Positions 5,445 to 60,112 of a DNA stretch of 64,000 bases are shown piece by piece (the stretch's first letter is position 1; the number at the start of each line of letters is the position of its first letter). The translations under genes and the position numbers were made by a program. This DNA comes from Candidatus Saccharimonadales bacterium (GTDB lineage: Bacteria > Patescibacteriota > Saccharimonadia > Saccharimonadales > EFPC-124): assembly GCA_035710125.1 (NCBI GenBank), contig DASTDY010000063.1:86446-150445 (forward strand), in the 5' to 3' direction. The notes beneath the pieces were generated by a model. The model was not told where the DNA came from. It was given only the letters and a program-made list of their open reading frames with translations, and ran no database searches.

Positions 5445-5456
5445 ACACTGGGGAGT
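5433..5456 (+). terminator. perfect 10-bp hairpin spanning the metK stop codon (no U tract)
   Basis: ACTCCCCAGT-aaac-ACTGGGGAGT. Confidence 0.4.
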
Positions 5457-5569
5457 TCGCCGCGGGCCGCCAGGCAATGAGCCTGGATTTCTGCTGGTCG
5501 CGCAAGCAGCAGCGTTTTATCGCTTAAACTACGGGCCCTTTTTGTGGATCATGCCGCCTCATTCGCGTG

Positions 5570-6013
5570 TTAAAGCTTGGTGGCGATCTCTAGCCTGAGT
5601 TCGCCACCGAGGATCGTGCAGTAGAGACGGTTAAAGCGCCGGTAAAGGCCTTTGCACGTCACGATCAGCACGTGGTCCTGCAGCCGAACGCAGAAGCTGC
5701 CGTTTGCAAGCATGTTACCTTCCGGCAACAGCTTGGTTCGGGCTACAGACCCACACGAACCCAGCCTTTTGGCTGTTGCCTGAGCTCTGCGGCGTGGGTT
5801 TTGGGTATCTTTCCCACCATCTGTGGGTTTGCTGCCCATACCCTTGTGCCACAACTCAACCAACTCACCACTAGGTAACAGTAGCGACACGTTCACCCAC
5901 AAGCTGGTGCCGCCCAAGTGGCCAGTAGCCAATCTAGGGCAAAGCTCCCGTGGGTTGCCAAGCACCCGCCATAGCAGGAGCTTGCCATCATTACTCTGGA
6001 GCTTGTCGCGCAT
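5570..6013 (-). CDS. hypothetical protein, GC-rich cassette A
   Basis: 147-aa ORF with GGAG 5 nt upstream of the ATG and TATATAAT further upstream in an AT-rich flank. Composition is clearly richer in G+C than its neighbours. No family recognised. Confidence 0.5.
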   Translation of the reverse strand: MRDKLQSNDGKLLLWRVLGNPRELCPRLATGHLGGTSLWVNVSLLLPSGELVELWHKGMGSKPTDGGKDTQNPRRRAQATAKRLGSCGSVARTKLLPEGNMLANGSFCVRLQDHVLIVTCKGLYRRFNRLYCTILGGELRLEIATKL

Positions 6014-6108
6014 GGCGACTCCAATCCGTAGGGGTGCGACACTAGTATTATATAATCTTTTGTTCTATATTTGAATATATTTTATAATAAGTTTTATCAT
6101 AAGCGTCA

Positions 6109-6654
6109 TCAGGCAATGAGTGGATAGATTGTCGCGTTTTCAAGCCGTGGTTGGTTGTACATGTGGTGCGACGATTTACCCTCGGCCACTGTTCGTAACA
6201 TGCGTCCGACACCAATGTGGCACACAATTAAAATTGTGTGGTGCGACGAATCGCGAAGCAACCCACGAAGTGCGTCTTGCACTCTGTTATGGAATGACAC
6301 TAGCTTTTCGACTCCCATAATATGGTCTACTGCCGGAAAATTACCGTTGAGCTTTTCGTTGTGCGCATAACTTGTGCCTTCTAGGTCACCCAAATTGCGT
6401 TCGGCAAGGTTGTTAATGGTAACGATTGCTTCGGGTGGGTAGCCGATTTCTTGGGCGATAATTTTAGCCGTTTGTTGCGCGCGTTCCAGCGGCGACGCCA
6501 CAATTAGGTCAATGCCTAGCCCCTTGGCATGCTGGCCAGCGTGATGCGCCTGGGAAATGCCGAGGTGACTTAAAGCAGTCTCTCGCGAGCCGCTCACAAT
6601 TTTGTGGGCGTTGTCGTTGGTTTGCCCGTGACGAACTAAATAAATTCGTTGCAT
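6109..6654 (-). CDS. histidine phosphatase family (phosphoglycerate mutase-like) protein
   Basis: MQRIYLVRHGQTNDN... carries the RHG catalytic motif; 181 aa. Confidence 0.85.
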   Translation of the reverse strand: MQRIYLVRHGQTNDNAHKIVSGSRETALSHLGISQAHHAGQHAKGLGIDLIVASPLERAQQTAKIIAQEIGYPPEAIVTINNLAERNLGDLEGTSYAHNEKLNGNFPAVDHIMGVEKLVSFHNRVQDALRGLLRDSSHHTILIVCHIGVGRMLRTVAEGKSSHHMYNQPRLENATIYPLIA

Positions 6655-6707
6655 ATGCTTATTCTAACAGTGCGGGCAGATTATGGTAGGCACTTCTGGC
6701 GAAACCC

Positions 6708-8174
6708 GTGTATACTCTGGCCGTGCAAATTAAAGGATTCGACTGGCGATATTGGCAGGTGCGCCGCACCACAATCATTGCGCTTTTGGCCGCAGGAGTA
6801 TTAGCTGGCATATGGGTTGCCCAATTTAATGCGCCAAGTGCGATGTGGCTACTTGCTTGCATATGCGTGGCAATATTTGGATTGCGCGGTAAAAAATGGT
6901 ATCTAGCCGTGCCGTGTGCCTTGGTAATTGGCCTGTGTGTCGGATTGTTGCGTGGGAGCGACACCCGTCAATATCTAGCAACCTATGGGCCATTATTGGG
7001 TTCAAAAGTACAACTCACCGGTACGCTGACCGAAGACACCGTGTACGGAGACCGTGGCCAGCGTGATATGCGACTTACTAACGTGCAGCTGCACGGCCAC
7101 GAATTACCCGGGGTTGTGCGGGTAACGGCGCTCACCATCGAACAGCCACGGCGAGGCGATACTGTGCAGGTTTCGGGCAAATTGTACAGCGGATTTGGGA
7201 GCTACCAGGCTGCTATATATTTTGGCCAACTACACATTACCCATGTTAACCAGGACCCGCTAGAAACATTACGCCGTTATTTTGCTGCCAGCGTATACTC
7301 GCTGTTGCCCGACACCCAAGCAGGACTTGGCTTAGGAATGTTGATCGGGCTTAAAACGCAGATGTCTGATTCGCTGAGCGACCAGCTTAAGGTATTGGCA
7401 CTCACCCACATTGTGGTGGCGAGTGGCTACAACCTTACTATTTTATTGCGTTTGGCGCGCCGGTTGTTCGAGCGTTTTTCTAAGTTTCAAACTGTCGCCA
7501 TTGGTTTTACCTTAATGGGGCTATTTGTGGTGGTCGCAGGTTTTGGTGCTAGCATGAGCCGAGCTGCGCTTGTGACTGGCCTTTGTTTGCTTGCGTGGTA
7601 CTACGGCCGGCGGACTCACCCTGTGGTTCTGCTCTTATTTGCGGCGGCGGTAACGGCGGTATGGAACCCACTTTACATGTGGAGCGACTTAGGCTGGTGG
7701 TTATCATTTTTGGCTTTTGCCGGAGTTATGTTGCTCGCGCCACTTATAGAGCGGCGGATTTTTGGCGAAAAGCGCCCAAAGCTTCTCGGCCAGCTAGCAA
7801 TAGAAACATGTGCCGCCCAAATCGCAACCCTGCCGCTTATTTTGGCTATTTTTGGCAGTTTAAGTGTGCTCGGTTTCTTCGCCAATATCATCCTTGTGCC
7901 GCTTGTACCATTTGCTATGTTATTCACTTTTGTTGCGGGGGTTGTCGGCTTGATGTTTGGTGCGGCCGCCGGTTACGTTGCGCTTCCGGCGCTATGGCTG
8001 CTCACGTTCATGACGCAAGTGGTCCATATGCTGGCGTCTGTGCCTTGGGCAGCGGTGCAATGCGTAATCAGCCAGCCCGTTATGGTAGGGTTGTACGTAC
8101 TCAGCTTAGCGGGCGGCGTACTATTGTGGCGGCGCACACGGTATGATTTCTTGGGGAGGAGTGTGATAGAATAA
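6708..8174 (+). CDS. comEC: ComEC/Rec2-family DNA internalisation channel (no C-terminal metallo-beta-lactamase domain)
   Basis: 488 aa and polytopic, with a DUF4131-like N-terminus and a competence-domain stretch LTHIVVASGYNLTILL. The ORF ends right after the membrane core. Confidence 0.8.
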   Translation: MYTLAVQIKGFDWRYWQVRRTTIIALLAAGVLAGIWVAQFNAPSAMWLLACICVAIFGLRGKKWYLAVPCALVIGLCVGLLRGSDTRQYLATYGPLLGSKVQLTGTLTEDTVYGDRGQRDMRLTNVQLHGHELPGVVRVTALTIEQPRRGDTVQVSGKLYSGFGSYQAAIYFGQLHITHVNQDPLETLRRYFAASVYSLLPDTQAGLGLGMLIGLKTQMSDSLSDQLKVLALTHIVVASGYNLTILLRLARRLFERFSKFQTVAIGFTLMGLFVVVAGFGASMSRAALVTGLCLLAWYYGRRTHPVVLLLFAAAVTAVWNPLYMWSDLGWWLSFLAFAGVMLLAPLIERRIFGEKRPKLLGQLAIETCAAQIATLPLILAIFGSLSVLGFFANIILVPLVPFAMLFTFVAGVVGLMFGAAAGYVALPALWLLTFMTQVVHMLASVPWAAVQCVISQPVMVGLYVLSLAGGVLLWRRTRYDFLGRSVIE

Positions 8175-8932: not shown

Positions 8933-8938
8933 CGCCCC

Positions 8939-12868: not shown

Positions 12869-13050
12869 GGGTGTCTCCTTATTTTCCATATTTTCCATCA
12901 TTATACTATATCGCGCGTGGGGTACCACCGCTAGATAGCGGCTAGTTTGCCGTTTGGCCACCCCACAGTATGCGAAATATAGCAAATATAGCAATTTTAT
13001 TTTATAGTTATTCCTGCAAGGAACACCCCCATCGCTGAAAGGCGGCAAAG

Positions 13051-13581
13051 GTGGAGTTACGTTCTCGATATGCGGAGAGCGAATTCAGAAACTTAGAGCC
13101 TGACCAGCTCCAGGTAACCTGGAGTGTGGCTGGGATCTACAGGCTCCTGAACCATGCTGATGTTGGCGAAGACCTCTCCGAGGGGTACAACGCCACCCAG
13201 CTGGGTGTGGATGAGAAGGTGTGGTTCCAGGGCACGGAGCACCCGTGTTCTTTTGAAACCGCCCATCTTTCGAGCCGGATGTTGGTTGTCAGCTTCAGGG
13301 CAGGAAACGACACGGTAACTACCGTGGCGTTTGCGCAGTGGCTGACCGGCAAGCGCTTTGAATGGCGCATGGCACGGGTTGCTTTGGTACTTCCGCTTAC
13401 CGATCCGCCCCAGTGGCGAACCGGCGATGAGGACGAACCAAACCGCCAGCGTTCGGCGCGGGTTTTCGAATATCTGTCGCTGGTGTACCACGGCGGCCTG
13501 ATGTTCGAGGAGCCATTCAAACCCATTCCACCGCACGGACCGGTCGTCGAGGATGACGGCACGAACGGTTCGGGCAAGTAG
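13051..13581 (+). CDS. hypothetical protein, GC-rich cassette B
   Basis: 176 aa from a GTG start. The + frame was chosen over the overlapping minus ORFs because its third codon positions are mostly G/C and its composition is protein-like. No family recognised. Confidence 0.5.
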   Translation: MELRSRYAESEFRNLEPDQLQVTWSVAGIYRLLNHADVGEDLSEGYNATQLGVDEKVWFQGTEHPCSFETAHLSSRMLVVSFRAGNDTVTTVAFAQWLTGKRFEWRMARVALVLPLTDPPQWRTGDEDEPNRQRSARVFEYLSLVYHGGLMFEEPFKPIPPHGPVVEDDGTNGSGK

Positions 13582-13584
13582 AAC

Positions 13585-13644
13585 GGGATAGTTCCATGTA
13601 GTCGGGGTAGGGCGTACACAGTGCGCCTTACCCCGCACTATCCC
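13585..13644 (+). terminator. nested GC-rich hairpin after cassette B (no U tract)
   Basis: Outer arms GGGATAGT/ACTATCCC enclose a 12-bp stem CGGGGTAGGGCG/CGCCTTACCCCG. Confidence 0.4.
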
Positions 13645-13733
13645 AAAATACTCTCGCACTTCTACCCAACCTGTACTACAATCGACGACACCAGTGATAT
13701 AATAGATATAAGAGAAAAGCGAGGGGAAAATTT

Positions 13734-14783
13734 ATGGCCGAACCGACTAAAAAGACCGACAAAAAACCAGTAGAAGACACCGTAAAAAAGGCAGACGAAG
13801 GCAAGCTTAAGGCGTTAGGCCTTGCCATGGAGCAGATAGAAAAGCAGTTTGGCACCGGCGCAATTATGCGGTTAGGTGAGCAAACGCACGCCAATGTAGA
13901 GTTTATTAGCGCCGGCGCGCTCAGCCTAGATTTAGCACTTGGCGGCGGCTATCCAAAAGGCCGCATTATAGAGATATACGGTCCAGAGAGCTCTGGTAAG
14001 ACCACGCTCACCCTGCATGCCATTGCCGAATGCCAACGCAGCGGTGGCACAGCCGCATTTATAGATGCCGAGCACGCGCTAGACCCCTCATACGCCCGTA
14101 AGTTAGGCGTGGATACTGACAACCTGCTAGTGAGCCAGCCAGACAACGGTGAGCAAGCGCTCGAAATTGTAGACTCACTCGTGCGTAGCAACGCGGTAGA
14201 CCTTATTGTAGTAGACTCGGTTGCGGCCCTAACCCCGCAGGCCGAAATAGAGGGCGACATGGGCGACAGCCACATGGGCCTACAAGCCCGCTTAATGAGC
14301 CAGGCGCTCCGTAAGCTAACGGGTGTTATTAACAAAAGCAAAGCCACAGTGATGTTTATTAACCAGATCCGCATGAAAATCGGCGTGATGTTTGGCAATC
14401 CCGAGACTACCACTGGTGGTAACGCGTTAAAATTTTACGCATCGGTCCGTATGGATATTCGCCGTTCAGGGCAAATTAAAGCCGGCGAAGAAGTAATTGG
14501 CAACCGCACAAAAGTGAAAGTTGTTAAAAACAAGATTGCGCCGCCATTTAGGCAGGCTGAGTTCGACATTATGTATAACGAAGGCATTAGCCAAACTGGT
14601 GATGTGCTTGATCTGGCGGTTACCCATGGCATTGTCGATAAGGCAGGCGCGTGGTTCTCTTACCAGGGCAGCAAAATTGGCCAAGGCCGGGAAGCATCAA
14701 AACAGTACCTTAAAGAGAACCCTGAGCTTATGGCAACAATCGACGCTGCAGTGCGCCAAAAAGTTGCCGCTGAGCAAGTGTAA
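13734..14783 (+). CDS. recA: recombinase RecA
   Basis: [19 protein letters not shown] and the canonical RecA core. Confidence 0.97.
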
Positions 14784-23839: not shown

Positions 23840-24292
23840 TTAGTTGAGGCTGTCTTTAGTTTGGTTGCTGTTGTCGTCTTCGCGTATCCAGTTTAGTTTA
23901 AACTTGGCGCAAGGAGCGGTAGAGCATGCAGTTGTGCCATCGCTGGCAAAGGTGGTGTAGCCATAGTGGGTAGCATCGGCAGTTGCGGCCATTGAGTTTG
24001 CTGACGCGCCAGGAGTGCGGAGCGAGTTAAGGTCGATGCCTTTTAGGTTGTCTTTAGCCCATGTGTCGCTGGCAAGTTCGCCGGTCAAAACCGGATAGCC
24101 ACCATTGTCGTTGTAATATACTTCGAGCTGGGTCGCTATTGAGTTAATGTCTGTCTGGCGCTCGGTGTCCCGCGCGCGCCTTTGCACGCCGCTGAATGTG
24201 TTTAATACTAGAGCCGCCAAGATACCGATTACCACAATCACGATCAATAGTTCGACGATTGTGAAACCTTTTTGTGAGTATTTTTTGAGCAT
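23840..24292 (-). CDS. pilA: major type IV pilin
   Basis: MLKKYSQKG|FTIVELLIVIVVIGILAALVL; 150 aa; own promoter and hairpin. Confidence 0.85.
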   Translation of the reverse strand: MLKKYSQKGFTIVELLIVIVVIGILAALVLNTFSGVQRRARDTERQTDINSIATQLEVYYNDNGGYPVLTGELASDTWAKDNLKGIDLNSLRTPGASANSMAATADATHYGYTTFASDGTTACSTAPCAKFKLNWIREDDNSNQTKDSLN

Positions 24293-32805: not shown

Positions 32806-32848
32806 GTGAGGTCGGCTAGTTTTGTACAATAGAACTAGCCGACCTCAC
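32806..32848 (+). terminator. perfect 16-bp hairpin after cassette D
   Basis: GTGAGGTCGGCTAGTT-11 nt-AACTAGCCGACCTCAC. Confidence 0.55.
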
Positions 32849-32874
32849 GGATAATAAAATTTAAAGGACAAAAT

Positions 32875-33440: not shown

Positions 33441-33472
33441 TAATGCGAGTAAGTATGATCTAACGTAAGGTT

Positions 33473-33856: not shown

Positions 33857-33859
33857 TCC

Positions 33860-38154: not shown

Positions 38155-38376
38155 TTATTTTAAAAACGAAGGGAGCTTTTTCCAGAACGAGTACACCTTC
38201 CAGCCACCAACAAGCAATGATACGCCAATAACAATAAAGGTGGCCGCAACTAATGCAAAAAGCACGGCCGGATATATAAGGATCAGAACCGCCAGCGCAA
38301 TAAATACAATGCCCTGCAAATAAAGGGTGATATAAAAATGGCGCACGGTGTCTTTGATTGTTTCAAGCTGTTTCAT
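38155..38376 (-). CDS. small 2-TM membrane protein (DUF308/HdeD-like)
   Basis: MKQLETIKDTVRHFY... followed by two TM helices; listed ORF trimmed to the internal ATG. Confidence 0.5.
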   Translation of the reverse strand: MKQLETIKDTVRHFYITLYLQGIVFIALAVLILIYPAVLFALVAATFIVIGVSLLVGGWKVYSFWKKLPSFLK

Positions 38377-38422
38377 AAAAGTAATCCTTATTACACGCCT
38401 ATTATAGCAACATGGTTGACAG

Positions 38423-38455
38423 AACAACCCGCGCAGCCCGATTGCGCGGGTTGTT
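38423..38455 (-). terminator. perfect 12-bp GC-rich hairpin after cassette F
   Basis: AACAACCCGCGC-9 nt-GCGCGGGTTGTT. Confidence 0.5.
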
Positions 38456-38512
38456 CTGGTAATTCGCAGCGGGTTTCGAGGTGCAGGCCTCTAAAGCCCC
38501 GCGGCTACTTGG

Positions 38513-46076: not shown

Positions 46077-46152
46077 GCGGGTGTCGTATAATGGTTCAAT
46101 ATATCTGCCTTCCAAGCAGAAGCTGCGGGTTCGATTCCCGCCACCCGCACCA
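46077..46152 (+). tRNA. tRNA-Gly (UCC)
   Basis: Manual cloverleaf: acceptor GCGGGTG/CACCCGC, anticodon loop CTTCCAA, T-loop TTCGATT, CCA encoded. Confidence 0.95.
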
Positions 46153-46818: not shown

Positions 46819-46857
46819 ACAACCCACGTAACCGGTTTGGGCCGTTTCGTGGGTTGT
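46819..46857 (-). terminator. perfect 10-bp hairpin after cassette G
   Basis: ACAACCCACG-19 nt-CGTGGGTTGT. Confidence 0.4.
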
Positions 46858-46879: not shown

Positions 46880-47389
46880 TCATCGCAGAATCCACGCCTT
46901 CACCTTGTGCACTGCGTAGCCGTGTTGGAATGCTCCGGAGCGCATGATACGCTCCAGGTTGGCCGCAGCGGTGTGTGGGTTGTCGAGCACTTGTTCGTAC
47001 TCGAGGAGCAAGTTGAGCATGCAGTCTTCCATGTGGGTGTAGGGGCAGAGCTCGTTGGTGGCGATCTTGATGATCGTGTTGTGGTTGGAGCTCAGCTCGT
47101 ACTCGATGCTGAACGCGAGTCGGGAGTCGCTCAGCGTCATGGCGCAACAGCCGACTCCTAGCTCCCACACCATTTTCTGCCGGCCTCGTTCGACGTCTGC
47201 GACTACCTTTTCGTAGAATGGACACCGGAAGAACCTTTGGCCGGCGTGCACGCGGTATGAGCCGCCGCGCCTGGTGACCAAAAAGGTGTCGGCGTCTACC
47301 TTGACAAAGACGTACGAGTAGACGCGCGCCAGCAGAACGGCCAACAAGCAAACTGCAACCGCTGCCAAAAAAACATATATGAGTTGCAT
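46880..47389 (-). CDS. N-terminally anchored membrane protein with SPFH/band-7-like beginning, GC-rich cassette G
   Basis: 169 aa; TM MQLIYVFLAAVAVCLLAVLLA, then YVFVKVDADTFLVTRRGGSYRVHAGQRFFRCPF (SPFH-like pattern). The alternative R-rich frame 46788..47351 was rejected. Confidence 0.55.
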   Translation of the reverse strand: MQLIYVFLAAVAVCLLAVLLARVYSYVFVKVDADTFLVTRRGGSYRVHAGQRFFRCPFYEKVVADVERGRQKMVWELGVGCCAMTLSDSRLAFSIEYELSSNHNTIIKIATNELCPYTHMEDCMLNLLLEYEQVLDNPHTAAANLERIMRSGAFQHGYAVHKVKAWILR

Positions 47390-47509: not shown

Positions 47510-47542
47510 GCCCGACACACCCTGCGAGTAGGCGTGTCGGGC
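47510..47542 (-). terminator. perfect 9-bp GC-rich hairpin after cassette H
   Basis: GCCCGACAC-15 nt-GTGTCGGGC. Confidence 0.45.
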
Positions 47543-47550: not shown

Positions 47551-47976
47551 TCAGAACTGCCTTGGGTTATCCCATGCGAGTTGCAGTAGCCGGAACAGCG
47601 CTCGCTTGCCGCTCACGTGGGATGCCAGTGAGTAGGCGAGCAGCCAAGCAGTGTGCTCGGCTTCAAGCGCCATATCTTTGAGGTTTCCACCCCCAACCGC
47701 AAGCGCGTTCCATGCCGTTTCGGCCTGCTGGCGAGTTCGACGCAATGCCTCGGCGCTTGCGTCCAGGTGCGATTGGGCCTCTTGCTGCGAAAGACCCCTG
47801 ACCCTGGCGTACAGCTCTGACCAGCGCTGATGTTCCTCTAGCAGTTCAGCGGCAGCGGGGTCGCCCACCTTTTCGGCAGCTGCAAAGTCGCGGCTGACTC
47901 TAGGGTGGCTCTCTAGTGCCATGCGGAAGAACAGGTGTGTGTATTCGGCAAGCCATTCGGGGCTCTCTACGCTCAC
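47551..47976 (-). CDS. all-helical hypothetical protein, GC-rich cassette H
   Basis: GTG start 5 nt after AGGAGG (47987..47982). The AT-rich sequence upstream of that point looks like native leader. No family recognised. Confidence 0.55.
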   Translation of the reverse strand: MSVESPEWLAEYTHLFFRMALESHPRVSRDFAAAEKVGDPAAAELLEEHQRWSELYARVRGLSQQEAQSHLDASAEALRRTRQQAETAWNALAVGGGNLKDMALEAEHTAWLLAYSLASHVSGKRALFRLLQLAWDNPRQF

Positions 47977-48126: not shown

Positions 48127-48204
48127 TGGGGCGAATGATGGGACTTGAACCCACGGCCTCCGGAGCCACAATCCAGCGCTCTAACCAACTGAGCTACATC
48201 CGCC
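48127..48204 (-). tRNA. tRNA-His (GUG) with encoded G-1 and CCA
   Basis: Manual cloverleaf: G-1 + GCGGATG/CATTCGC + C73, anticodon loop TTGTGGC, T-loop TTCAAGT. Confidence 0.95.
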
Positions 48205-49137: not shown

Positions 49138-49167
49138 GCCAGGGAGGGGGTGATGTCCCTCCCTGGC
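49138..49167 (-). terminator. perfect 11-bp GC-rich hairpin after cassette I
   Basis: GCCAGGGAGGG-8 nt-CCCTCCCTGGC. Confidence 0.5.
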
Positions 49168-49183: not shown

Positions 49184-49549
49184 TCAGACGTGCGTGGCGA
49201 CCGGTTCTGCGTGCGCTGCTCCTTGCTGTTCCTTCTTGTGGTCTTCGACGGTGGTGAGTGTGAGGCCCACGGGCAGGGCGGCGATCAGGACGAAGATGGC
49301 GAGCGAGAGTGGCGCGGTGAAGAGCCCCCAGTCGTAGTTGTCCCACGCGCGCAGCTCGATCGAGATCGAGATCGCGCACACCTCGCAGACGAGGATGGCG
49401 ACCACGAGCGTGTGGGTCCAGAAGTTGACGCCGCCCTTGCGTCCGTTGAGGTAGGCTGCGTAGAAGGCAACGGTCAGGCTGATCAGGGCGAAGAGCAGGG
49501 TGTCCGAGACAAACGGCACCAGGCTGTTCGAGACCGGAGTGCAAGTCAT
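49184..49549 (-). CDS. 3-TM small membrane protein with charged C-tail, GC-rich cassette I
   Basis: 121 aa; GGGAG SD 6 nt upstream. Paralogue of 50254..50670 (shared AY..G, Glu in TM2, R..AW[DN], LP[VI]G). Confidence 0.65.
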   Translation of the reverse strand: MTCTPVSNSLVPFVSDTLLFALISLTVAFYAAYLNGRKGGVNFWTHTLVVAILVCEVCAISISIELRAWDNYDWGLFTAPLSLAIFVLIAALPVGLTLTTVEDHKKEQQGAAHAEPVATHV

Positions 49550-49596
49550 GAGGTTCTCCCGAGGGTAGGTGTAAGGCGGGGTGCCATTACACGTTC

Positions 49597-49711: not shown

Positions 49712-50284
49712 ATGGAAAATACAGTATGCTACTTAATCGGTGGCGCAGCGCGCACTGGCAAAACAACTATGGCTAACGAGCTAGCCGTAGAGCATGGCAT
49801 AAAGCCGTTTTGTACTGATTCATTGCACGTTATGCTAACAAAATTAGTGCGTCGTCAAGACAACCCCGATCTTTTTTATACGCATGATCTTTCTGTTGAG
49901 CAGTTCTACGAGAAAAATAATACACCTCAGAAAGCGTTGGAAGCTACGGTTAAAGCCGCTCTTGCATCTGAATACGGGTTTACAGTATTCATAGAGCGTA
50001 TTTTGCCGTCCTGGCAGGTTATGGTAATAGAGGGCACGCTAATAACTCCAGGTTTTGTGAGCCGGCTGCGGCAGAAGTATCCAGACACTACATTTGAGGC
50101 GACCTTTTTGTACGATGATAACTTGGATCGGATTCGTGATAGAATCTACACCCATGGCCTGTATTACCGTACGCCCTATTCTGACAACATAAAGCCTAAA
50201 GAGGTCGCATACGTTCAGGCATGCAACGACTGGTATAAAAAAGAGGCAAAACGCTACAAAATGGAGTTAATACACATTTTGTAG
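49712..50284 (+). CDS. P-loop ATPase, 2-phosphoglycerate-kinase-like
   Basis: YLIGGAARTGKTTMANELA, ...CTDSLHVML, VIEGTLITP; 190 aa. Confidence 0.65.
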   Translation: MENTVCYLIGGAARTGKTTMANELAVEHGIKPFCTDSLHVMLTKLVRRQDNPDLFYTHDLSVEQFYEKNNTPQKALEATVKAALASEYGFTVFIERILPSWQVMVIEGTLITPGFVSRLRQKYPDTTFEATFLYDDNLDRIRDRIYTHGLYYRTPYSDNIKPKEVAYVQACNDWYKKEAKRYKMELIHIL

Positions 50285-50670
50285 ATATTAAACCTTGGGA
50301 ATGCAAAAAGCCCTACTAGCATCTTTTCGCGTTGGGTTGTGCTGTTCTTCTGCTCGTCGTTGCGCTTCTTCTGCTCGTTCTGGAACTCCTCTTCGCCGGC
50401 GCAGCGGGCACCGATCGGCAGGACGAAGATCGCGACGATGGCGATGATCGCCACCCAGATGCTCCACCACATGAAGGCGTCGGTGTTCCACGCGTTCCAG
50501 CGGAACGTGAGCGCGACCATGCCGGCCTCGGCGAGCAGCAGTGACAGGAACTCCAGGGAGTAAACCCAGGACTCGATGGGACGGTTGCGCAGGCCGCTGA
50601 CGTACGCCGTGAAGGTGGCGTGCGTCACGCCGACGACGGCGAAGATCATGCAGAGGGCGTTGATGACCAT
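50254..50670 (-). CDS. 3-TM small membrane protein, GC-rich cassette J (paralogue of cassette I; C-terminus reads through the repeat)
   Basis: Start ATG 50670 sits behind the conserved leader ...CCTACCCTCGGGAGTTCCTC. The ORF tail overlaps the convergent P-loop gene by 31 nt. Confidence 0.55.
   Translation of the reverse strand: MVINALCMIFAVVGVTHATFTAYVSGLRNRPIESWVYSLEFLSLLLAEAGMVALTFRWNAWNTDAFMWWSIWVAIIAIVAIFVLPIGARCAGEEEFQNEQKKRNDEQKNSTTQREKMLVGLFAFPRFNIYKMCINSIL
50295..50342 (+). repeat. direct repeat copy 2 (48 nt), inside the 3' end of cassette J ORF
   Basis: TTGGGAATGCAAAAAGCCCTACTAGCATCTTTTCGCGTTGGGTTGTGC. Confidence 0.85.
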
Positions 50671-50718
50671 GAGGAACTCCCGAGGGTAGGGCAAAGGCGG
50701 GTGCCGTATGCTGAATGT

Positions 50719-50804: not shown

Positions 50805-50880
50805 TGGTACCCCGGGTTGGACTCGAACCAACGGCCAGAAGCTTAGAAGTCTCCTGCTCTATCCACTGAGCTACCGGGGC
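50805..50880 (-). tRNA. tRNA-Arg (UCU)
   Basis: Manual cloverleaf: acceptor GCCCCGG/CCGGGGT, anticodon loop CTTCTAA, T-loop TTCGAGT, CCA encoded. There is one A-G mismatch at the base of the anticodon stem. Confidence 0.85.
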
Positions 50881-51541: not shown

Positions 51542-53071
51542 TTAAATCTCGCGGATCACCTCTATATTTGCGCCAATGCTATTAAGGCGGGCGGCCAAAT
51601 CTTCGTACCCGCGGTTAATCGAATACACGTTGCGCAGCACAGACACGCCATCTGCCGCCAACATACCAATCAAAATCAGTACAGCCGGACGTAAGGCGGG
51701 CGGGCAAATAACCTCGGCGGCGCGCCAGTGGGTGGGGCCGTTAATGTAGGCGCGGTGCACATCGGCTAGGGTTACGTCGGCATTTAATTTGGTAAGCTCT
51801 GTGTAATAAATGGCGCGGTTTTCGTATGTCCAGTCGTGGACCAACGTTTTGCCTCGGGCGTTGGCGGCAATCGGCACAAAGTAAGGCAGGTTGTCCATGT
51901 TCATGCCGGGGTCGTCGTGGGCTTCTAGTTTATCTTCTAGCGCCACAAGGTCAGATGCGTCAATACACTGGATATCTACTAAATTAGTGTGGCCGTTTTT
52001 AGCTTTGTACGGCTCGCTTACCTTGAATTTAAAGTTCATTTTTTCTAGTTTTAGCAGTTCTAAGTCTAAAAAGTCGATTGGCGCACGGCGGATGTGTATA
52101 GGTGAATTGGTAGTTGCGGCAATACTTAAAAAGGTCATTGCCTCTATTGGGTCTTCGCTTGGCCAATACTCTACATCTTTATTGATGTTTTTTACGCCGT
52201 GGATCCGCAGTGTGTGGGTGCCAATACCCTCTATTTTTACGCCCAGTTTGGTCAAGAAATGGCATACATCCACCACCATATAGTTGCTCGCGGCGCGGCG
52301 GATCTCTACCACGCCGTCAATGCGGGCGGCTGCCATAACGGCGTTTTCGGTTGGCGTGTTACCGCTTTCGTACATGACAATTTTGCCGGGGTTACGTGGT
52401 TTGGCGGTGCAGTTATACCAACCGGTTACGGTGTCTACGCTAAGGCCCATTTCTTCTAATGCGTACAGATGCGGCTTAATGGTGCGTTCGCCTAGCTTAC
52501 ATCCACCGGCAAACGGAATGCGAAATTCGGGCATTAGGTGCATAAGCGGCCCCATGTACATAATGACGCTGCGGGTTTTGCGGCCGGCTGCTGCGTCGAT
52601 TTTGTTCATTTGTAGTTTTGCAGGTGGTTTTATTTCTAGGTCGCCAAGGTCGTTGAGCCAGCGCACTTTAACGCCAATGCTTAGCATAACTTCTATAAGC
52701 CGGTTGACCTCTTCAATCTTAGGCATGCGGCGTAGGGTAGTGGTGCCTTTGTTTAGTAATGATGCGCATAAAAGGCCCACTGCAGCGTTTTTACTAGTAC
52801 GGACAGTAATATCACCCTTGAGTTTATGGCCGCCCTCAACTCGGAAGTTAAGCGTGCCAGGGCGGTGCAGCGAAATAATTTCGCTATTTAAGGCGTCGCT
52901 AATGCGCGCCAGCATTTCCATGCTTAGGTTTTGACCCCCGTTTTCTATGCGGTTGATGGCACTCTGGCTGGTGCCCAGCGCCTGCGCAAACTGAGCCTGG
53001 GTAAGGCCGCGGTCTAAACGGGTTTGTTGAATAAGTTTACCTATTTTTTGCTTGTAGTCGGTTTCGCTCAT
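51542..53071 (-). CDS. murA: XRE-type HTH domain fused to UDP-N-acetylglucosamine 1-carboxyvinyltransferase (MurA-like)
   Basis: The first roughly 70 aa are LTQAQFAQALGTSQSAINRIENG (an HTH_3 pattern). The rest has the EPSP/MurA fold with FAGGCKLGERTIKPH (active-site Cys loop). Confidence 0.85.
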   Translation of the reverse strand: MSETDYKQKIGKLIQQTRLDRGLTQAQFAQALGTSQSAINRIENGGQNLSMEMLARISDALNSEIISLHRPGTLNFRVEGGHKLKGDITVRTSKNAAVGLLCASLLNKGTTTLRRMPKIEEVNRLIEVMLSIGVKVRWLNDLGDLEIKPPAKLQMNKIDAAAGRKTRSVIMYMGPLMHLMPEFRIPFAGGCKLGERTIKPHLYALEEMGLSVDTVTGWYNCTAKPRNPGKIVMYESGNTPTENAVMAAARIDGVVEIRRAASNYMVVDVCHFLTKLGVKIEGIGTHTLRIHGVKNINKDVEYWPSEDPIEAMTFLSIAATTNSPIHIRRAPIDFLDLELLKLEKMNFKFKVSEPYKAKNGHTNLVDIQCIDASDLVALEDKLEAHDDPGMNMDNLPYFVPIAANARGKTLVHDWTYENRAIYYTELTKLNADVTLADVHRAYINGPTHWRAAEVICPPALRPAVLILIGMLAADGVSVLRNVYSINRGYEDLAARLNSIGANIEVIREI

Positions 53072-54619: not shown

Positions 54620-54643
54620 GCCCGCGGCGAGATCGCCGCGGGC
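54620..54643. terminator. perfect 10-bp GC hairpin between convergent glyA and cassette K
   Basis: GCCCGCGGCG-agat-CGCCGCGGGC. Confidence 0.55.
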
Positions 54644-54674: not shown

Positions 54675-55829
54675 CTACTCCGAGGTGCCGTTGGTGCTGT
54701 GCTGGTCGGTTGCGGTCGGGTCGGTTGCTGCGGGCGCCTCGGGCTGGGTCGGGTCGACAGGTTTCATGTCGGTCTCGGTTTTCGGGAACCTCGAGTTTAC
54801 CTCGTTCAGCACTAGGGCGGCGATCGGAAGCGAGCGGAGGGTGGCCTCTGCGTTCCACATGGCGGGTTCTGCGGTCTGTGCCGCTTCGGCCACGGGTTCC
54901 TTGTCTGCCTGCGGAGGGTCAGTCACCCTGTCGTCGCTGGTCTGGGGCGTGGGCTCAGGTTCAGCGACCTCCGACACGGGTTCTGGTGCAGGTTCGGGCT
55001 CATCTTCCATTTCGGGCGCCGTTGCCTGTTCCGGTTCGAGGCCGGCTTCGGGCTCGAACTCCTGCTCGAACTCTGGCGTTGTCTCCTCTGGGGCTGCGTC
55101 GTCGTAGCCCGCGCTGTAGCCCTGATCGTCGGCTTCAGCCTGAGACTTCTCGATGAGTGCCAGACCGTTGCCTCCTGTTGCCACACTCCCGTTGTGCGCG
55201 AAGTAGCCCGTGGCTTGGCCAGATCCCTGTGCGCCGTTGCCAGGCGCCTGCCAGACGGGAGACGCCGGTGCGAGCGCTTGTTGCGGCGCCGACGAAGTCA
55301 AAACCCGCAGCTGCTGAGGTGCCGTTGTCGGCAGACCATGCGGCGGCTGCCGGAAGGTGTACTTGGGAGCCGCCTGGCCGATCGCCCGCTGGGCGTGGCG
55401 ACGGAACTCCTCCAGCTCGCGGCCGGCAGCCTGCGTGAACGCGGTCAGCGACGCCTGCTGTCGTTCTGTGAGTTGAGCTGTGACGATGCTCGCTCTGGCC
55501 GTGACTTCCTCGAGGATGTCCTTGACTGCAGCGTCCAGGTTCATCTGCGGGTTGAGTTTTTTCACCAGTTCAGCTGTGTGGTCGTGCCACGCCAGCAGGT
55601 CATCGTGCCGGTCGTCGCTGGCCTTCTTGCGGCGTCTCAACATGACGATGATTACCACCATCGCCACGAAGATCAGCGCCAAAAAACCCAGCACGATCCA
55701 CTGGAATGGGGTAAAAATGCCAAACACAGACACAGTGTCTGCCCCTTCGGGTAGGGAATTGCTCTCTGTTAAACGCGTACGAACCCCTTTTTGCGCGGCG
55801 CGGTGTGCGCGCCAGACGTTCGGCTCCAA
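54675..55829 (-). CDS. single-pass membrane protein with Pro/Glu/Ala-rich acidic low-complexity C-terminal half, GC-rich cassette K
   Basis: TM FQWIVLGFLALIFVAMVVIIVML-RRRKK; tail ...EFEQEFEPEAGLEPEQATAPEMEDEPEPAPEPVSEVAEPEPTP.... Start is uncertain (TTG 55829 or an internal GTG before the TM). Several shadow ORFs are present. Confidence 0.6.
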   Translation of the reverse strand: MEPNVWRAHRAAQKGVRTRLTESNSLPEGADTVSVFGIFTPFQWIVLGFLALIFVAMVVIIVMLRRRKKASDDRHDDLLAWHDHTAELVKKLNPQMNLDAAVKDILEEVTARASIVTAQLTERQQASLTAFTQAAGRELEEFRRHAQRAIGQAAPKYTFRQPPHGLPTTAPQQLRVLTSSAPQQALAPASPVWQAPGNGAQGSGQATGYFAHNGSVATGGNGLALIEKSQAEADDQGYSAGYDDAAPEETTPEFEQEFEPEAGLEPEQATAPEMEDEPEPAPEPVSEVAEPEPTPQTSDDRVTDPPQADKEPVAEAAQTAEPAMWNAEATLRSLPIAALVLNEVNSRFPKTETDMKPVDPTQPEAPAATDPTATDQHSTNGTSE

Positions 55830-57120: not shown

Positions 57121-57957
57121 ATGAGAAAGAACCAGGGCGGCTTTAGTATTGTAGAGATCCTCATTGTGTTCGTTATACTAGGTGTAATCGGATTTATTGG
57201 CTGGAGAATACTCGATAATCCCAAACAATCAGATCCTCAAGTACAGAACCCAAACACAAACCCTATACCAGATAAGTTGATTTGGCAGCAAACAGCTGAC
57301 GGTTGGCGGGCTACAGAAACCCCACCCGCTTGTCCTAGCCAGCCAATGCTTACACCGCCGACCGATCTAAGTAAAGTAACCTCAATGCTTTACCCTGGGC
57401 AAACGAGAGGTGGTAATTACAAGCCGCATGGTGGGTTCCGTTTTGATAACGCCGCCGACAACGCCGTTATGGTAACAGCTCCGATTGACGGGTTTATAGT
57501 TAAAGGTACACAGTATCTTGCCGAGGGCGAAAATGAAATCCAGTATGGTTTTGATATTATGAACAACTGTGGAATTATGTACCGCGTAGGGCATTTAAGA
57601 GAGCTGCCCGCTAATTTGCAAAAGATTGCAGATACGTTTCCCGCCGCAACTACAAGCTCACAAAACCATCCCGTAAATCCTGTAGTATTCGTAAAAAAAG
57701 GCGATACGCTTGCCACGAAAGTAGGAATCATCAGTAATAAAAATACATTCTTTGACTGGGGTGTGTATGATTTTCGCCAAACAAACGAGGCTAGCAAATC
57801 GCCAGCGTACCAGTCGGGGCACAGCCAGGATAAAGAGCTATCTTGGCATGCCGTTTGTTGGCTAAAAGACTGGCTGCCAGCAAGCGACGCGGCCACAATT
57901 GCCAAACTCCCTGCCGGCGACCCAGCCAGTGGTAAAAATAGTGATTACTGCAAATGA
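57121..57957 (+). CDS. protein with prepilin-type N-terminus and large C-terminal domain, orphan
   Basis: MRKNQGG|FSIVEILIVFVILGVIGF; 278 aa. Confidence 0.65.
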   Translation: MRKNQGGFSIVEILIVFVILGVIGFIGWRILDNPKQSDPQVQNPNTNPIPDKLIWQQTADGWRATETPPACPSQPMLTPPTDLSKVTSMLYPGQTRGGNYKPHGGFRFDNAADNAVMVTAPIDGFIVKGTQYLAEGENEIQYGFDIMNNCGIMYRVGHLRELPANLQKIADTFPAATTSSQNHPVNPVVFVKKGDTLATKVGIISNKNTFFDWGVYDFRQTNEASKSPAYQSGHSQDKELSWHAVCWLKDWLPASDAATIAKLPAGDPASGKNSDYCK

Positions 57958-58505
57958 AAAACCCATTCAAAACCCTATCTTCAAAAATCGTATATAAAAA
58001 CCCTTGGATACGGGTGAGGGAGGATGCGATCATCCGGCCGGATGGATCAGAGGGCATATATAGCGTTGTTGAATCTAAAGACTCAGTAGTAGTGGGCGCT
58101 TTAAACGACAAGAACGAACTATTTTTGATTTATTCTTTTAGTTACCCTGCGCAGTCATGGCAGTGGGAACTCCCAGGCGGCAGTTGCGATGACGACCACA
58201 GGTTGGTTGCATCCAAGCGTGAGCTCGCCGAAGAAACAGGAATAACCGCCAAGCAATGGACCGAGCTGCAATCTACCAGAGTTTGTGATGGTTTTATGAC
58301 CGAACGCACTACAACCCTACTAGCCAGAGACTTATCTTTTGGATCAAAAACAGTTGCCGACGACCACGGTGTTATTGCAGAAGGGCGGTTTTTTTCGTTT
58401 GCCCAAATACATAAGATGGTACAAGAAGGCAAAATTGATGAGGGGCAAACCATTACGGCGCTTTATCTTATAGAGCACTGGCTCAAAAAGAACCAATTAG
58501 CGTAA
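57954..58505 (+). CDS. NUDIX hydrolase
   Basis: NUDIX box GGSCDDDHRLVASKRELAEETGI. Confidence 0.85.
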   Translation: MKNPFKTLSSKIVYKNPWIRVREDAIIRPDGSEGIYSVVESKDSVVVGALNDKNELFLIYSFSYPAQSWQWELPGGSCDDDHRLVASKRELAEETGITAKQWTELQSTRVCDGFMTERTTTLLARDLSFGSKTVADDHGVIAEGRFFSFAQIHKMVQEGKIDEGQTITALYLIEHWLKKNQLA

Positions 58506-59121: not shown

Positions 59122-59186
59122 TGTGGCCTCAAGTAGTCATATATCTGTAAAGATGTTTCTTGGCAAACGCACCTCTGTTTATATAT

Positions 59187-59215
59187 TTGACAAATCAGTA
59201 GAAAATTGGTATAAT
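59187..59215 (+). promoter_or_regulatory. consensus sigma70-type promoter in front of cassette L
   Basis: TTGACA-N17-TATAAT exactly, followed by AGGAGA 6 nt before ATG 59275. Confidence 0.65.
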
Positions 59216-59274
59216 TTTGTTTAGAAAGTTGGGTAATACCTTCGCTAGAACCGAGACAATTTAGGAGAAATTCC

Positions 59275-60033
59275 ATGAGGATCCGATTGGTTGCGCTTGG
59301 TCTGGCGGCACTCGCTTTGAGTGCCTGCTCGAGCACCGAACCGCAGCAGACGGCGCCCGCGGCCACCTCGGCCACCACAACCACCACGGCCACACCGACC
59401 CCGACCAGCCCGGTCGACATGGTGGCCGAGTCCATCAAGGACAAGGCGTTCGCGTACTACACGTCGACTGAGCGCCGTCAGCGCATCGACGCGTTTCTCA
59501 CGAACGAGGGCGTGCGTTACGCCAAGCTGATGGAGTCGGGCGAGATCCCGTCGAGAGCCCGCGGCTGGGCCAGCACCACGCCGCCACCGCGCAACGGCTA
59601 CGGCCTGCTCGAATCGGTCAACGGGGGCAACACGGTCAGGCCGTTCCTGAGCGTTGTCGTGTTCTTCAACAACGGCAAGGTCGATCTGAACCAGCAGGTT
59701 CTGTCGGTCTACATCATCAAGGGCAACCGCTCTGTCGATGTGGACGGCAGGCTGGTCGTGAAGGTGGACGGCACGCTGTTGCGTGACACCCCCGGGGCCT
59801 ACGGCTGGCGGATCGACGGCTCCAAGGACGACAACCACGGCTTCATGCTCGACAAGCGCGGCCGCGGCTCGTTCGACCCCGAGCTTCCTCTCGACCCGAA
59901 CAGGAAGTACACGGTGCTGTCCCGCAAGAGCATCGGCGTTCTCGTCACCGAGACCGAGCTCCGCGATGCCGACAACATGCTGTTCCAGCTGCTCGGCACC
60001 GAGTTCGCGGTGAACCCCTCCGACTGGCGGTAA
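59275..60033 (+). CDS. lipoprotein, GC-rich cassette L
   Basis: MRIRLVALGLAALALSAC (lipobox LSAC) and a Thr/Pro-rich linker ATSATTTTTATPTPTSP. There is a long shadow ORF on the opposite strand. Confidence 0.75.
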   Translation: MRIRLVALGLAALALSACSSTEPQQTAPAATSATTTTTATPTPTSPVDMVAESIKDKAFAYYTSTERRQRIDAFLTNEGVRYAKLMESGEIPSRARGWASTTPPPRNGYGLLESVNGGNTVRPFLSVVVFFNNGKVDLNQQVLSVYIIKGNRSVDVDGRLVVKVDGTLLRDTPGAYGWRIDGSKDDNHGFMLDKRGRGSFDPELPLDPNRKYTVLSRKSIGVLVTETELRDADNMLFQLLGTEFAVNPSDWR

Positions 60034-60041
60034 CCCAACTT

Positions 60042-60112
60042 GCCGAGGCGTCCACACACTGGACGCCTCGGCGGGAACCTAAGTGCTTAATGAGTTAAGC
60101 TTTTAGGTTCCC
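60042..60112 (+). terminator. tandem hairpins after cassette L
   Basis: GCCGAGGCGTCC-7 nt-GGACGCCTCGGC (12 bp perfect), then GGGAACCTAA...TTAGGTTCCC. Confidence 0.55.

Follow-up and report, generated by a model that had tools for sequence, protein, structure and literature searches.

Compositionally foreign single-gene units, possibly of long residence, between conserved genes of a Candidatus Saccharimonadales genome

A 64-kb stretch of a Candidatus Saccharimonadales metagenome-assembled genome (MAG), hereafter the window (50.4% GC, from a contig of 229 kb, NCBI tags VFO38_04650 and VFO38_04785), contains twelve GC-rich gene blocks, or cassettes, that are compositionally foreign to the surrounding backbone. 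On the best reading of these 64 kb and a few short contigs of relatives, the cassettes look foreign yet have long been resident in the lineage, their composition not having blended with that of the backbone. We give about an even chance to the explanation that they are long-resident, fast-evolving, autonomous envelope-gene units whose separate composition equilibrium is actively maintained, and their ultimate origin may be foreign.

All twelve cassette ORFs of the original prediction are present at the positions listed in Table 1, and in a leave-one-out codon-usage log-likelihood score each of them ranks above all 63 other ORFs of the window. Their status as GC-rich outliers is strong in seven only (GC 0.57-0.65, GC3 0.71-0.89, versus a backbone GC3 of ~0.52), the remaining five being weaker (GC3 0.56-0.69). 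The dinucleotide signature of the seven lies at a distance of 213 from the backbone, compared with 32 (95th percentile 54) when equally large samples are drawn at random from the backbone. The cassettes lack the resident signature, a depletion of TC/GA together with an excess of GC that is present at codon positions 2-3 and 3-1 as well as between genes. Shadow ORFs, which had been described as exclusive to the cassettes, also occur outside them but are enriched 3.7-fold inside (3.1 per kb versus 0.83 elsewhere).

Table 1. Cassettes and associated features of the window, with the compositional class of each cassette
Feature	Position	Strand	Class	Details
GC-rich block flanked by metK and a histidine phosphatase gene, no support for coding	5570-6013	-	weak	10/12 promoter 6075-6047
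GC-rich block preceding recA, reading frame uncertain	13051-13581	+	weak	three overlapping ORFs
Cassette between TsaD and RNase Y	28438-28881	-	weak	SD GGAGGA, TTG start; GC3 0.69
Secreted DUF2690 protein cassette	32280-32783	+	strong	signal peptide, four invariant Cys; GC3 0.71; perfect 16-bp hairpin 32806-32848
Cassette of borderline composition	34702-35133	+	weak	GC3 0.56; 11/12 promoter 34658-34687
Gene for small 2-TM protein, AT-rich; conserved partner following Tyr-rich gene	38155-38427	-		start probably near 38370
Perfect 16-bp hairpin past Tyr-rich gene	38420-38458	-		
Secreted Tyr/Gly/Asn-rich protein cassette	38513-39337	-	strong	signal peptide; SD GGGAGG, TTG start; GC3 0.88
tRNA-Gly	46077-46152	+		
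N-terminally anchored protein cassette, tRNA-Gly/tRNA-His slot	46880-47389	-	strong	GC3 0.77; hairpin 46819-46857 (14 nt, 93%)
Cassette, helical soluble protein	47551-47976	-	weak	SD AGGAGG, GTG start; GC3 0.65; 10/12 promoter 48067-48039; hairpin 47510-47542
tRNA-His	48127-48203	-		
3-TM membrane protein cassette, paralogue A	49184-49549	-	strong	GC3 0.87; promoter 49625-49597 (11/12); perfect 11-bp hairpin 49138-49167
3-TM membrane protein cassette, paralogue B	50254-50670	-	strong	GC3 0.86; promoter 50747-50719 (11/12)
tRNA-Arg	50805-50880	-		
Single-pass membrane protein, Pro/Glu/Ala-rich disordered tail	54675-55829	-	strong	GC3 0.73; true start probably GTG near 55733; 10-bp all-GC hairpin 54620-54643, common to convergent SHMT
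Perfect sigma-70 promoter, TTGACA-17-TATAAT with extended TG	59187-59215	+		12/12 + TG, best promoter match of the window; 60 nt upstream of lipoprotein gene
Lipoprotein cassette	59275-60033	+	strong	lipobox LSAC, Thr/Pro linker; GC 0.65, GC3 0.89
Two successive GC-rich hairpins closing lipoprotein unit	60042-60112	+		13 bp perfect; 18 nt at 89%

As predicted, the composition resembles that of Actinomycetota of 62% GC: in codon usage, the cassettes show a correlation of r 0.90-0.95 with plasmid genes of Rhodococcus and Paenarthrobacter but of 0.51 with the backbone, and the dinucleotide distance from cassettes to actinobacteria (119-151) is like that between Rhodococcus and Paenarthrobacter (133). 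From composition alone a foreign origin is the simplest reading, which speaks against a maintained composition and for recent capture, in which single genes were taken up from a donor of high GC such as an actinobacterial host and the donor composition is not yet ameliorated. The encoded amino acids, however, stay closer to the backbone (GARP 0.29 and FYMINK 0.21 in cassettes, 0.26 and 0.25 in the backbone, 0.33 and 0.17 in actinobacteria). Moreover, the rise in GC is limited to third codon positions, GC1 and GC2 being hardly raised despite dN/dS of 0.5-0.7; cassette flanks are AT-rich, and co-transcribed or adjacent small genes have a GC of 0.40. This pattern weighs against GC-biased gene conversion at recombination hot spots as the process lifting cassette GC, as do the sharp, ORF-limited boundaries and the expectation that heteroduplex forms in conserved flanks, not in a non-homologous insert. 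Although cassettes sit in slots with demonstrated allele swapping by recombination (see below) and the organism is seemingly competent, we regard gene conversion as very improbable.

The cassettes had also been proposed to be self-contained units with strong promoters and hairpins of their own, and this is supported. In a sigma-70 scan of the window, cassettes follow four of the top five matches (the fifth precedes tRNA-Pro), and the three promoters named beforehand, those of the lipoprotein and both 3-TM genes, were borne out together with the three Shine-Dalgarno (SD) sequences preceding non-ATG starts. A perfect hairpin of 9-16 bp after ten of the twelve was, by contrast, an overstatement: perfect stems of at least 10 bp lie downstream of five (versus 2 of 59 other genes), and imperfect stems of 12-16 nt, 87-93% paired, follow four more. 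The unit is best read as a single ORF with an SD and an AT-rich sigma-70 promoter of near-consensus sequence in front and a GC-rich hairpin without U tract behind; the near-perfect promoters count against recent capture. Export or membrane signals were confirmed by inspection in seven of twelve products, which are exactly those of the strong outliers, in support of the claim that strong cassettes encode envelope or secreted proteins. Soil MAGs from complex communities invite the suspicion that GC-rich reads of other organisms were joined into a Saccharimonadales contig during assembly or binning. Unit boundaries nevertheless match promoters, SDs and stop codons, and the same gene-flank junctions recur in independent assemblies (L033, L034 and L035 from Logan SRR7186533/SRR7186536; L116; L001-L004, of which two are NCBI MAGs and two come from Logan runs), which leaves a chimera with a near-negligible probability.

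Age is indicated by relatives that carry the same genes in the same places. The membrane protein gene 54675-55829 and the lipoprotein gene have orthologues in the same slots in L033, with dS of 0.32 and 0.45, respectively, versus 0.32-0.62 in flanking genes, and with dN/dS of 0.59 and 0.70 versus 0.06-0.08; the lipoprotein orthologue, P0024 (55%; GC3 0.89), is the sole other homologue known. Cassette orthologues hold GC3 at 0.76-0.93 even with backbone synonymous sites ~80% saturated. For example, between the window and L001, W/S differences have reached 80% of saturation in the backbone, and in the Tyr-rich gene 80% of the level at which that gene itself saturates; its GC3 is 0.88 in the window and 0.79 in L001 (0.93 in the L005 homologue). 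Neutral amelioration is disfavoured because an ancestral GC3 above 1 would be required: when the two-state process of the backbone is applied, the starting value comes out at 1.20 for the Tyr-rich gene and 1.04 (95% interval 1.005-1.07) for the lipoprotein gene. It is the more biased cassettes that are conserved, whereas turnover among close relatives affects the less biased ones; had the cassettes formed a series of progressive amelioration, the reverse would be expected. With siblings bearing cassettes in the same positions, backbone-like dS and GC3 without decay, the idea of recent capture is not supported on timing.

Donors give it little support either. Homologues of the Tyr-rich, lipoprotein and 3-TM families occur in a handful of relatives' contigs only: searches of 5.8 billion or 1.84 billion proteins, of plasmids, of phages and of IMG/VR turned up nothing actinobacterial and nothing from plasmids, phages or IMG/VR. 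Acquisition from the host, or from a donor like it, is unsupported as the source of the present composition. DUF2690 (Pfam 26.7 bits, cut-off 23) is the family that had been linked to Actinomycetota, and it does have homologues on Rhodococcus and Paenarthrobacter plasmids, adjoining conjugation genes, in favour of recent capture. These homologues (36-39%), however, are placed in other clades, and the closest relatives (47-66%) are found in ~50% GC contigs bearing the resident dinucleotide signature. Taken over all cassettes, the outcome is largely the one that had been named beforehand as refuting capture. For DUF2690, an old exchange with Actinomycetota is likely. The gene has a dN/dS of 0.03 against L034, and its AF2 model is a confident beta-sandwich (pLDDT 85) with no neighbour among solved structures. 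Four cassettes lie in slots bounded by tRNA-Gly, tRNA-His and tRNA-Arg, but att-like direct repeats at tRNA ends were looked for and not found, and the ORFs scanned against Pfam included no integrase families. Variation of certain slots between close relatives and the presence of ComEC, type IV pili, RecA and RuvABC genes in the window would suit recent capture, which we consider improbable overall.

The other strong families are narrowly distributed. Five members of the Tyr-rich family are known, its fold being modelled, with low confidence, as all-beta. Positional orthologues of the gene occur in L001, where it lies with its small TM partner between YmdB and ClpC, and in L116, where it adjoins AsnB; L005 has an additional homologue, and GC3 in these relatives is 0.79-0.93. 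The partner is 56% identical to the 71-aa gene following the L001 orthologue and has a GC of 0.40 in both genomes. The two 3-TM paralogues match at E 3e-9 (24% identity), have a 33-nt leader in common and flank a resident gene, with GC3 of 0.86-0.87 kept in both copies; only 2 representatives were found among 1.84 billion proteins. Plasmid and PDB searches with 46880-47389 gave no match.

Whole-unit exchange is most evident in the weak class. At 28438-28881, L034 has a 26%-identical homologue (E 4e-11) with its own hairpin in place of gene and hairpin, between flanking proteins that are 92-99% identical; both alleles are GC3-rich, and the comparison shows a swap of the whole unit by recombination in conserved flanks. 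Cassette 34702-35133 is missing from L034, a DUF72 gene being found at that place, and in L038 and L057 the slot upstream of recA is short (about 210-240 bp). The SHMT-MurB slot, home of 54675-55829, contains GC-rich genes of the same architecture in L008 and L010 and is empty in L009, L013 and L028. No homologues and no Pfam or Rfam matches were found for 5570-6013 and 13051-13581. The swap at 28438-28881, non-homologous GC-rich genes in the same slots (L001, L006, L008, L010) and the competence and recombination gene set could reflect a GC-rich accessory pool among these Saccharimonadales, re-imported through conserved flanks and possibly supplied from outside by hosts or their plasmids or phages, the composition being that of the pool. 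Residence in Saccharimonadales of ~50% GC should, however, bring amelioration there too, AT-rich genes enter the same slots (the pool is not uniformly GC-rich), plasmid, phage and IMG/VR searches found no external reservoir, and dS parity with flanks argues against replacement of two strong cassettes since the window/L033 split. We therefore rate the pool as rather unlikely.

Under the maintained-equilibrium explanation, the blocks would be resident, largely vertically inherited and lineage-restricted genes of a soil Saccharimonadales clade, the strongly biased ones encoding exported, lipid-anchored or membrane proteins. The units lie in intergenic slots bordered by conserved genes and tRNA genes, where whole units can be exchanged via recombination in conserved flanks, as at 28438-28881. 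Except for DUF2690, strong-class proteins evolve about ten times faster than those of neighbouring genes, and the cassettes likely form a variable cell-surface and secreted repertoire. Their G/C-ending codons and non-resident dinucleotides would represent a separate equilibrium within the ORF, not a fading trace of import, equal to a W-to-S fixation bias of 4Nes ~2 by an estimate based on the GC3 values of both equilibria. Tentatively, synonymous-site selection for expression or mRNA stability, shunning A/U-ending codons and UA, would be the most likely cause. Such selection must recreate the high-GC pattern, down to the use of Lys, Glu and Gln codons that end in G, and the backbone codon usage of the pilin (23840-24292), AhpC and RecA genes, all presumed to be well expressed, counts against a link with expression. 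One rRNA operon and ~46 tRNAs are reportedly (Sharp et al. 2005) a setting in which strong translational selection is not expected. The values of one operon and about 46 tRNAs are based on a genome related to that of the window (PMC6031116). Against vertical descent, positional orthology at longer distances would also be compatible with allele replacement from a pool, as at 28438-28881.

Among known systems, integron gene cassettes are likewise single-gene units followed by an inverted repeat; the window units differ in having strong promoters of their own, in being dispersed on both strands with hairpins unrelated in sequence, and in lacking intI or attI nearby. Horizontally acquired alien genes, or genomic islets, which ameliorate in the model of Lawrence and Ochman, share the atypical GC3, codon usage and dinucleotides, the variable and in several cases tRNA-adjacent slots and the restriction to a lineage. 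Unlike them, the cassettes show no amelioration over near-saturated synonymous divergence, no donor homologues, integrase or att repeat were found, and it is the conserved members, rather than the newest, that are most strongly biased. Phage morons, described by Hendrix and colleagues, are single ORFs between conserved genes with their own sigma-70 promoter and factor-independent terminator; their composition is unlike that of their neighbours, usually AT-richer, and they often encode surface or host-interaction proteins. The window cassettes match them as single ORFs of deviant composition with own promoter and hairpin between conserved genes, but lie in a cellular chromosome without phage genes nearby, are GC-richer, have long co-diverged with their flanks and gave no phage or IMG/VR homologues. 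The O-antigen and capsule clusters of Enterobacteria are AT-rich, multi-gene biosynthetic loci of persistently low GC. Whereas the cassettes are GC-rich, single ORFan protein genes, they resemble these loci, which encode variable surface structures, in keeping a non-resident composition across diverged lineages and in being exchanged by recombination in conserved flanks.

All 12 GC-rich single-gene ORFs ("cassettes") of the original prediction are present, and they are compositional outliers, as it had claimed: in a leave-one-out log-likelihood score of cassette codon usage against that of the backbone (the remaining resident ORFs), each of the 12 ranks above all 63 other window ORFs (cassettes -0.27 to +0.62; backbone mean -0.53, sd 0.14, maximum -0.29). 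GC content of the window is 50.4%, and GC3 is about 0.52 in backbone ORFs, 0.71-0.89 in seven cassettes (strong in the table) and 0.56-0.69 in the other five (weak). Cassette codons are shifted wholesale to those ending in G or C, e.g. TTC from 0.23 in the backbone to 0.78, ATC from 0.26 to 0.84, AAG from 0.31 to 0.82 and CTG from 0.15 to 0.48, and relative codon usage correlates at r 0.90-0.95 with that of actinobacterial genes (Rhodococcus, Paenarthrobacter plasmid) and at 0.51 with the backbone. Amino-acid composition is shifted only slightly (GARP/FYMINK 0.29/0.21 in cassettes, 0.26/0.25 in the backbone, 0.33/0.17 in actinobacterial genes), and GC1 and GC2 are near backbone values. The use of AGR and GCA codons, considered as an un-actinobacterial trait, was dropped after comparison with real actinobacterial genes of 62% GC.

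The strong cassettes also lack the resident dinucleotide signature. In the backbone TC/GA is depleted to 0.66 overall and to 0.71 in intergenic DNA (TC 0.44-0.55 and GA 0.30-0.54 at codon positions 2-3 and 3-1), GC and AA/TT are in excess (1.46 and 1.28) and TA is not avoided (0.98); the relatives' contigs L001, L010, L012, L032 and L034 have this signature in common (TC/GA 0.66-0.78 and GC 1.4-1.55, window included). Strong cassettes show TC/GA 1.04, GC 1.08 and TA 0.61. In signature distance they lie 213 from the backbone, for which equal-sized random samples give 32 (95th percentile 54); plasmid genes of Paenarthrobacter and Rhodococcus are closer to them, at 119 and 151, and are themselves 133 apart. 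The cassettes are a distinct compositional class, donor-like and atypical for the recipient in composition, codon usage and signature, as recent transfer would have it. As for the resident TC/GA depletion, a deaminase-like mutational pressure from TC to TT would be consistent with it; avoidance of palindromic restriction sites was rejected as its cause, GATC and TCGA having observed/expected ratios of about 1 under Markov expectations.

Cassettes and other features of the window
Feature	Position	Remark
Cassette	5570-6013	weak
Cassette	13051-13581	weak
Cassette	28438-28881	weak
DUF2690 cassette	32280-32783	strong
Cassette	34702-35133	weak
Tyr-rich cassette	38513-39337	strong
Cassette	46880-47389	strong
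Cassette	47551-47976	weak
3-TM paralogue	49184-49549	strong
3-TM paralogue	50254-50670	strong
P/E-rich cassette	54675-55829	strong
Lipoprotein cassette	59275-60033	strong
Leaders of the 3-TM paralogues	49550-49582; 50671-50703	- strand; 33 nt
C-terminal extension of a 3-TM paralogue	50254-50331	25 residues, AT-rich
Gene convergent to it	49712-50284	its end overlapped by the extension
DUF2690 module	32280-33107; 34287-34622	split by an AT-rich insertion of ~1.2 kb
AT-rich accessory genes	31334-32164; 33108-34237	GC 0.38-0.44; no Pfam match; flank DUF2690
SAM riboswitch	4163-4268	immediately upstream of metK
metK	4251-5444	backbone
Pilin gene	23840-24292	backbone usage
Asparagine synthase gene	40060-42705	F420-ligase-like domain at the C-terminus (E 2e-6)
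MurA gene	51542-53071	N-terminal HTH_3 (XRE-type) DNA-binding domain
NUDIX hydrolase gene	57954-58505	backbone-like composition; absent from L033, a strain-level indel that is not GC-rich
Blocks given sensitive Rfam scans	5400-6150; 12950-13760	nothing usable

The backbone carries metK with its SAM riboswitch, ComEC, RuvCAB, RecA/RecX, a type IV pilus cluster, TsaE/TsaD, RNase Y, AhpC, AsnB, ClpC, a sortase, HTH-MurA, SHMT and MurB; a scan of the window against Rfam gave just five tRNAs and the riboswitch, and exact-sequence look-ups of window proteins returned no record. Sequence searches did, however, match two cassette products at 100% identity to NCBI proteins from a 229-kb contig of a Candidatus Saccharimonadales MAG. 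The HTH_3-MurA fusion is kept at full length in relatives down to ~53% identity, and the MurA relatives from GTDB genomes are Saccharimonadales or Patescibacteria with a GC content of 33-55%. Backbone GC3 spans ~0.20 to 0.72 across related Saccharimonadales (MurA and RuvB relatives L006-L115; locus GC 33-55%), and base composition is therefore evolving quickly in this group.

The cassettes are autonomous units of promoter, ORF and hairpin. The three promoters and the three Shine-Dalgarno sequences with non-ATG starts proved to be as predicted; the five best sigma-70 matches in the whole window (at least 11/12) precede 59275, 34702, 50254, 49184 and tRNA-Pro. GC-rich perfect hairpins had been reported 3' of ten of the 12. 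Stems are indeed frequent there, but perfect ones of at least 10 bp follow only five (vs 2/59 other genes), with near-perfect stems of 12-16 nt 3' of four more. Shadow ORFs, said to be restricted to the GC-rich blocks, are 3.7 times denser in strong cassettes but occur in long backbone genes too. A non-coding RNA explanation of the weak blocks finds no support in the Rfam scans listed in the table.

Strong cassettes encode envelope or secreted proteins: by inspection, seven products have, as predicted, a signal peptide, lipobox or TM segments, and these coincide with the seven strong GC3 outliers; a crude hydrophobicity test of relatives' loci gave an odds ratio of 2.9 (p = 0.04). In the lipoprotein, for example, inspection finds a signal peptide that ends in a lipobox L-[AS]-[GA]-C (MRIRLVALGLAALALSAC). 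Two starts are uncertain. The P/E-rich gene has a TTG at 55829 that no Shine-Dalgarno sequence precedes, and its orthologue in L033 (a Logan assembly with ~90% backbone nucleotide identity to the window) begins at about residue 33 (GTG near 55733); for the Tyr-rich gene the NCBI call is 10 residues shorter than the Shine-Dalgarno-preceded TTG at 39337. The two 3-TM paralogues, although only 24% identical in protein, have in common a leader of the form CCCGCCTT..CCTACCCTCGGGAG..CCTCATG, identical at 28/33 positions and perhaps a regulatory element used by both. The C-terminal extension of the second distinguishes its product from the close relative P0034 (113 aa).

Genes of atypical composition are as a rule taken for recent horizontal acquisitions, and for episymbiotic Saccharibacteria origin from the host is an attractive story; here, however, composition and comparative tests disagree. 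The predicted capture from an actinobacterial donor is, as a recent event, not supported by the closest homologues, which for the Tyr-rich, lipoprotein, 3-TM and DUF2690 proteins fall outside the donor clade. For the first three, matches are confined to Saccharimonadales or relatives: the Tyr-rich protein has four in 5.8 billion proteins, two of them labelled Saccharimonadales or Saccharimonas (the contigs fetched for them, L001-L005 and L116, are all ~51-55% GC), one other homologue was found for the lipoprotein, and the 3-TM pair has two representatives in 1.84 billion. Searches of phages, plasmids and IMG/VR with these and the 46880 protein gave no match, nor did sequence searches of the PDB, and the AF2 model of the Tyr-rich protein is of low confidence (pLDDT 54). 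Except for DUF2690, the cassettes are ORFans of this clade. Hallmarks of mobility were likewise missing, though four cassettes stand between tRNA genes: att-like direct repeats of tRNA ends were not found, and there is no integrase among the ORFs scanned against Pfam.

The DUF2690 (PF10901) assignment was confirmed at 26.7 bits (gathering cut-off 23), and the cysteine pattern is present, with C35, C40, C55 and C90 invariant in 17 sequences. Its reading as a recent actinobacterial import is not supported: of 18 matches the nearest (47-66%) lie in the ~50% GC contigs L031, L032 and L034. These share with the window both the resident dinucleotide signature and a pair of small membrane-protein genes downstream of DUF2690, these two features being all that ties L031 and L032 to the window's lineage. 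Matches in high-GC DNA reach 36-39% (contig L117 with 63% GC, plus plasmids of Rhodococcus and Paenarthrobacter on which the DUF2690 gene adjoins conjugation genes) and fall outside the clade of the window protein in a neighbour-joining tree that is unsupported. An old exchange between Actinomycetota and Saccharimonadales is plausible for DUF2690 only; an actinobacterial link of soil Saccharimonadales has been raised as a suggestion only (PMC6031116). The AF2 model is confident, and Foldseek against the PDB found no significant neighbour (best TM about 0.3). In L031, L032 and L034, DUF2690 is followed by two small AT-rich 2-TM genes with a GC of about 0.40; the three make up a conserved module whose composition is mixed. 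The AT-rich accessory genes are absent from the ~92% identical L034, where an AAA_15/SMC_N gene takes the place of the first and the second site is empty.

Comparative data consist of the 64 kb and relatives' short contigs, and both models applied to them are simple (dS and dN by NG86; amelioration by a two-state model fitted to the backbone). L033 carries orthologues of the P/E-rich and lipoprotein genes in the same slots, with dS of 0.32 and 0.45, in the range of the flanking genes (0.32-0.62), dN/dS of 0.59-0.70 (flanks 0.06-0.08) and GC3 that stays at 0.76 and 0.89, respectively; DUF2690 is conserved in L034 with a dN/dS of 0.03. The Tyr-rich gene has positional orthologues in L001 (between YmdB and ClpC, with a small TM partner gene) and in L116 (adjoining AsnB, 82% identical in amino acids), with 42-48% identity and GC3 of 0.79-0.87; GC3 of the L005 homologue is 0.93. 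Cassettes thus occupy the same sites in relatives, their dS is like that of the backbone and their dN/dS is high, and GC3 shows no decay. In the comparison with L001, backbone W/S differences at synonymous third positions have reached 80% of saturation; the Tyr-rich gene has a saturation level of its own, which differs from that of the backbone, and it too stands at 80%. For neutral amelioration under the two-state model, the ancestral GC3 would have to be 1.04 for the lipoprotein (95% interval 1.005-1.07) and 1.20 for the Tyr-rich gene, both impossible values. The values for the P/E-rich gene (0.86) and DUF2690 (0.74) are possible, and these two are therefore uninformative at this distance.

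Turnover follows the opposite order to that of an amelioration series, since weakly biased cassettes turn over and strongly biased ones are conserved. In L034 the whole unit at 28438-28881, hairpin included, is replaced by a 26%-identical homologue between flanks of 92-99% identity and with sharp break points, and a DUF72 gene stands in place of 34702-35133; L038 and L057 lack the 13051-13581 block. Among the close relatives, whose contigs all lie outside 46-51 kb, L033 or L034 retains each of the cassettes at 32280, 54675 and 59275. Other GC-rich genes, most of which encode membrane proteins, occupy the SHMT-MurB, VIT1-sortase and tRNA-Gly/tRNA-His slots of L006, L008, L010 and L001. AT-rich genes enter these slots as well, and nothing stands between SHMT and MurB in the more distant L009, L013 and L028. 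A GC-rich gene pool with re-import is the main rival explanation of the composition.

We infer that a fixation bias acting only within the ORF maintains the composition; its strength, estimated from equilibrium GC3 of 0.88 vs 0.53, would be a 4Nes of ~2. gBGC as the agent raising cassette GC is a poor fit because the effect does not extend past the ORF and leaves GC1 and GC2 unaffected. Nor is classical translational selection a good fit, because G- and C-ending codons rise together; moreover, the pilin, AhpC, RecA and ClpC genes, whose high expression is assumed, have backbone usage. Motif scans of the window and all fetched loci for ribosomal, EF or GroEL genes found none. Our leading guess for the cause of the fixation bias is selection at the mRNA level, against A/U-ending codons and UA, linked to strong expression. 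It is very improbable that the surface and secreted protein genes owe their actinobacterial-like G/C-ending usage and UA avoidance to adaptation to epibiotic life and not to their history; one possible form would be transcription or translation tuned to high-GC host resources, conceivably scavenged G/C-rich nucleotide pools or host-type decoding capacity. Were such tuning real, the surface repertoire would be made preferentially while feeding on the host, and a host-matched compositional compartment would be kept by selection in a reduced genome.

All compositional measures make the cassettes look foreign, but they diverge in step with the chromosome and show no amelioration. Should the same be true of the whole genome, about a tenth of the genes would make up a compartment of their own in composition, rich in rapidly evolving envelope proteins, which are the likeliest to mediate host recognition; compositional HGT detectors would mislabel this class in Patescibacteria, and a 4Nes of ~2 would act at synonymous sites in an organism for which next to no such bias is expected. 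Literature searches found no description of this gene class, which gives experimenters a small, clearly delimited set of surface and secreted protein candidates whose promoters are predicted to be strong.

Among known systems, integron gene cassettes would be marked by a conserved attC architecture and by promoterless ORFs in a co-oriented array beside intI/attI. The units described here differ from them in that their hairpins are perfect GC stems mutually unrelated in sequence, and in that they possess promoters of their own and lie dispersed on both strands.
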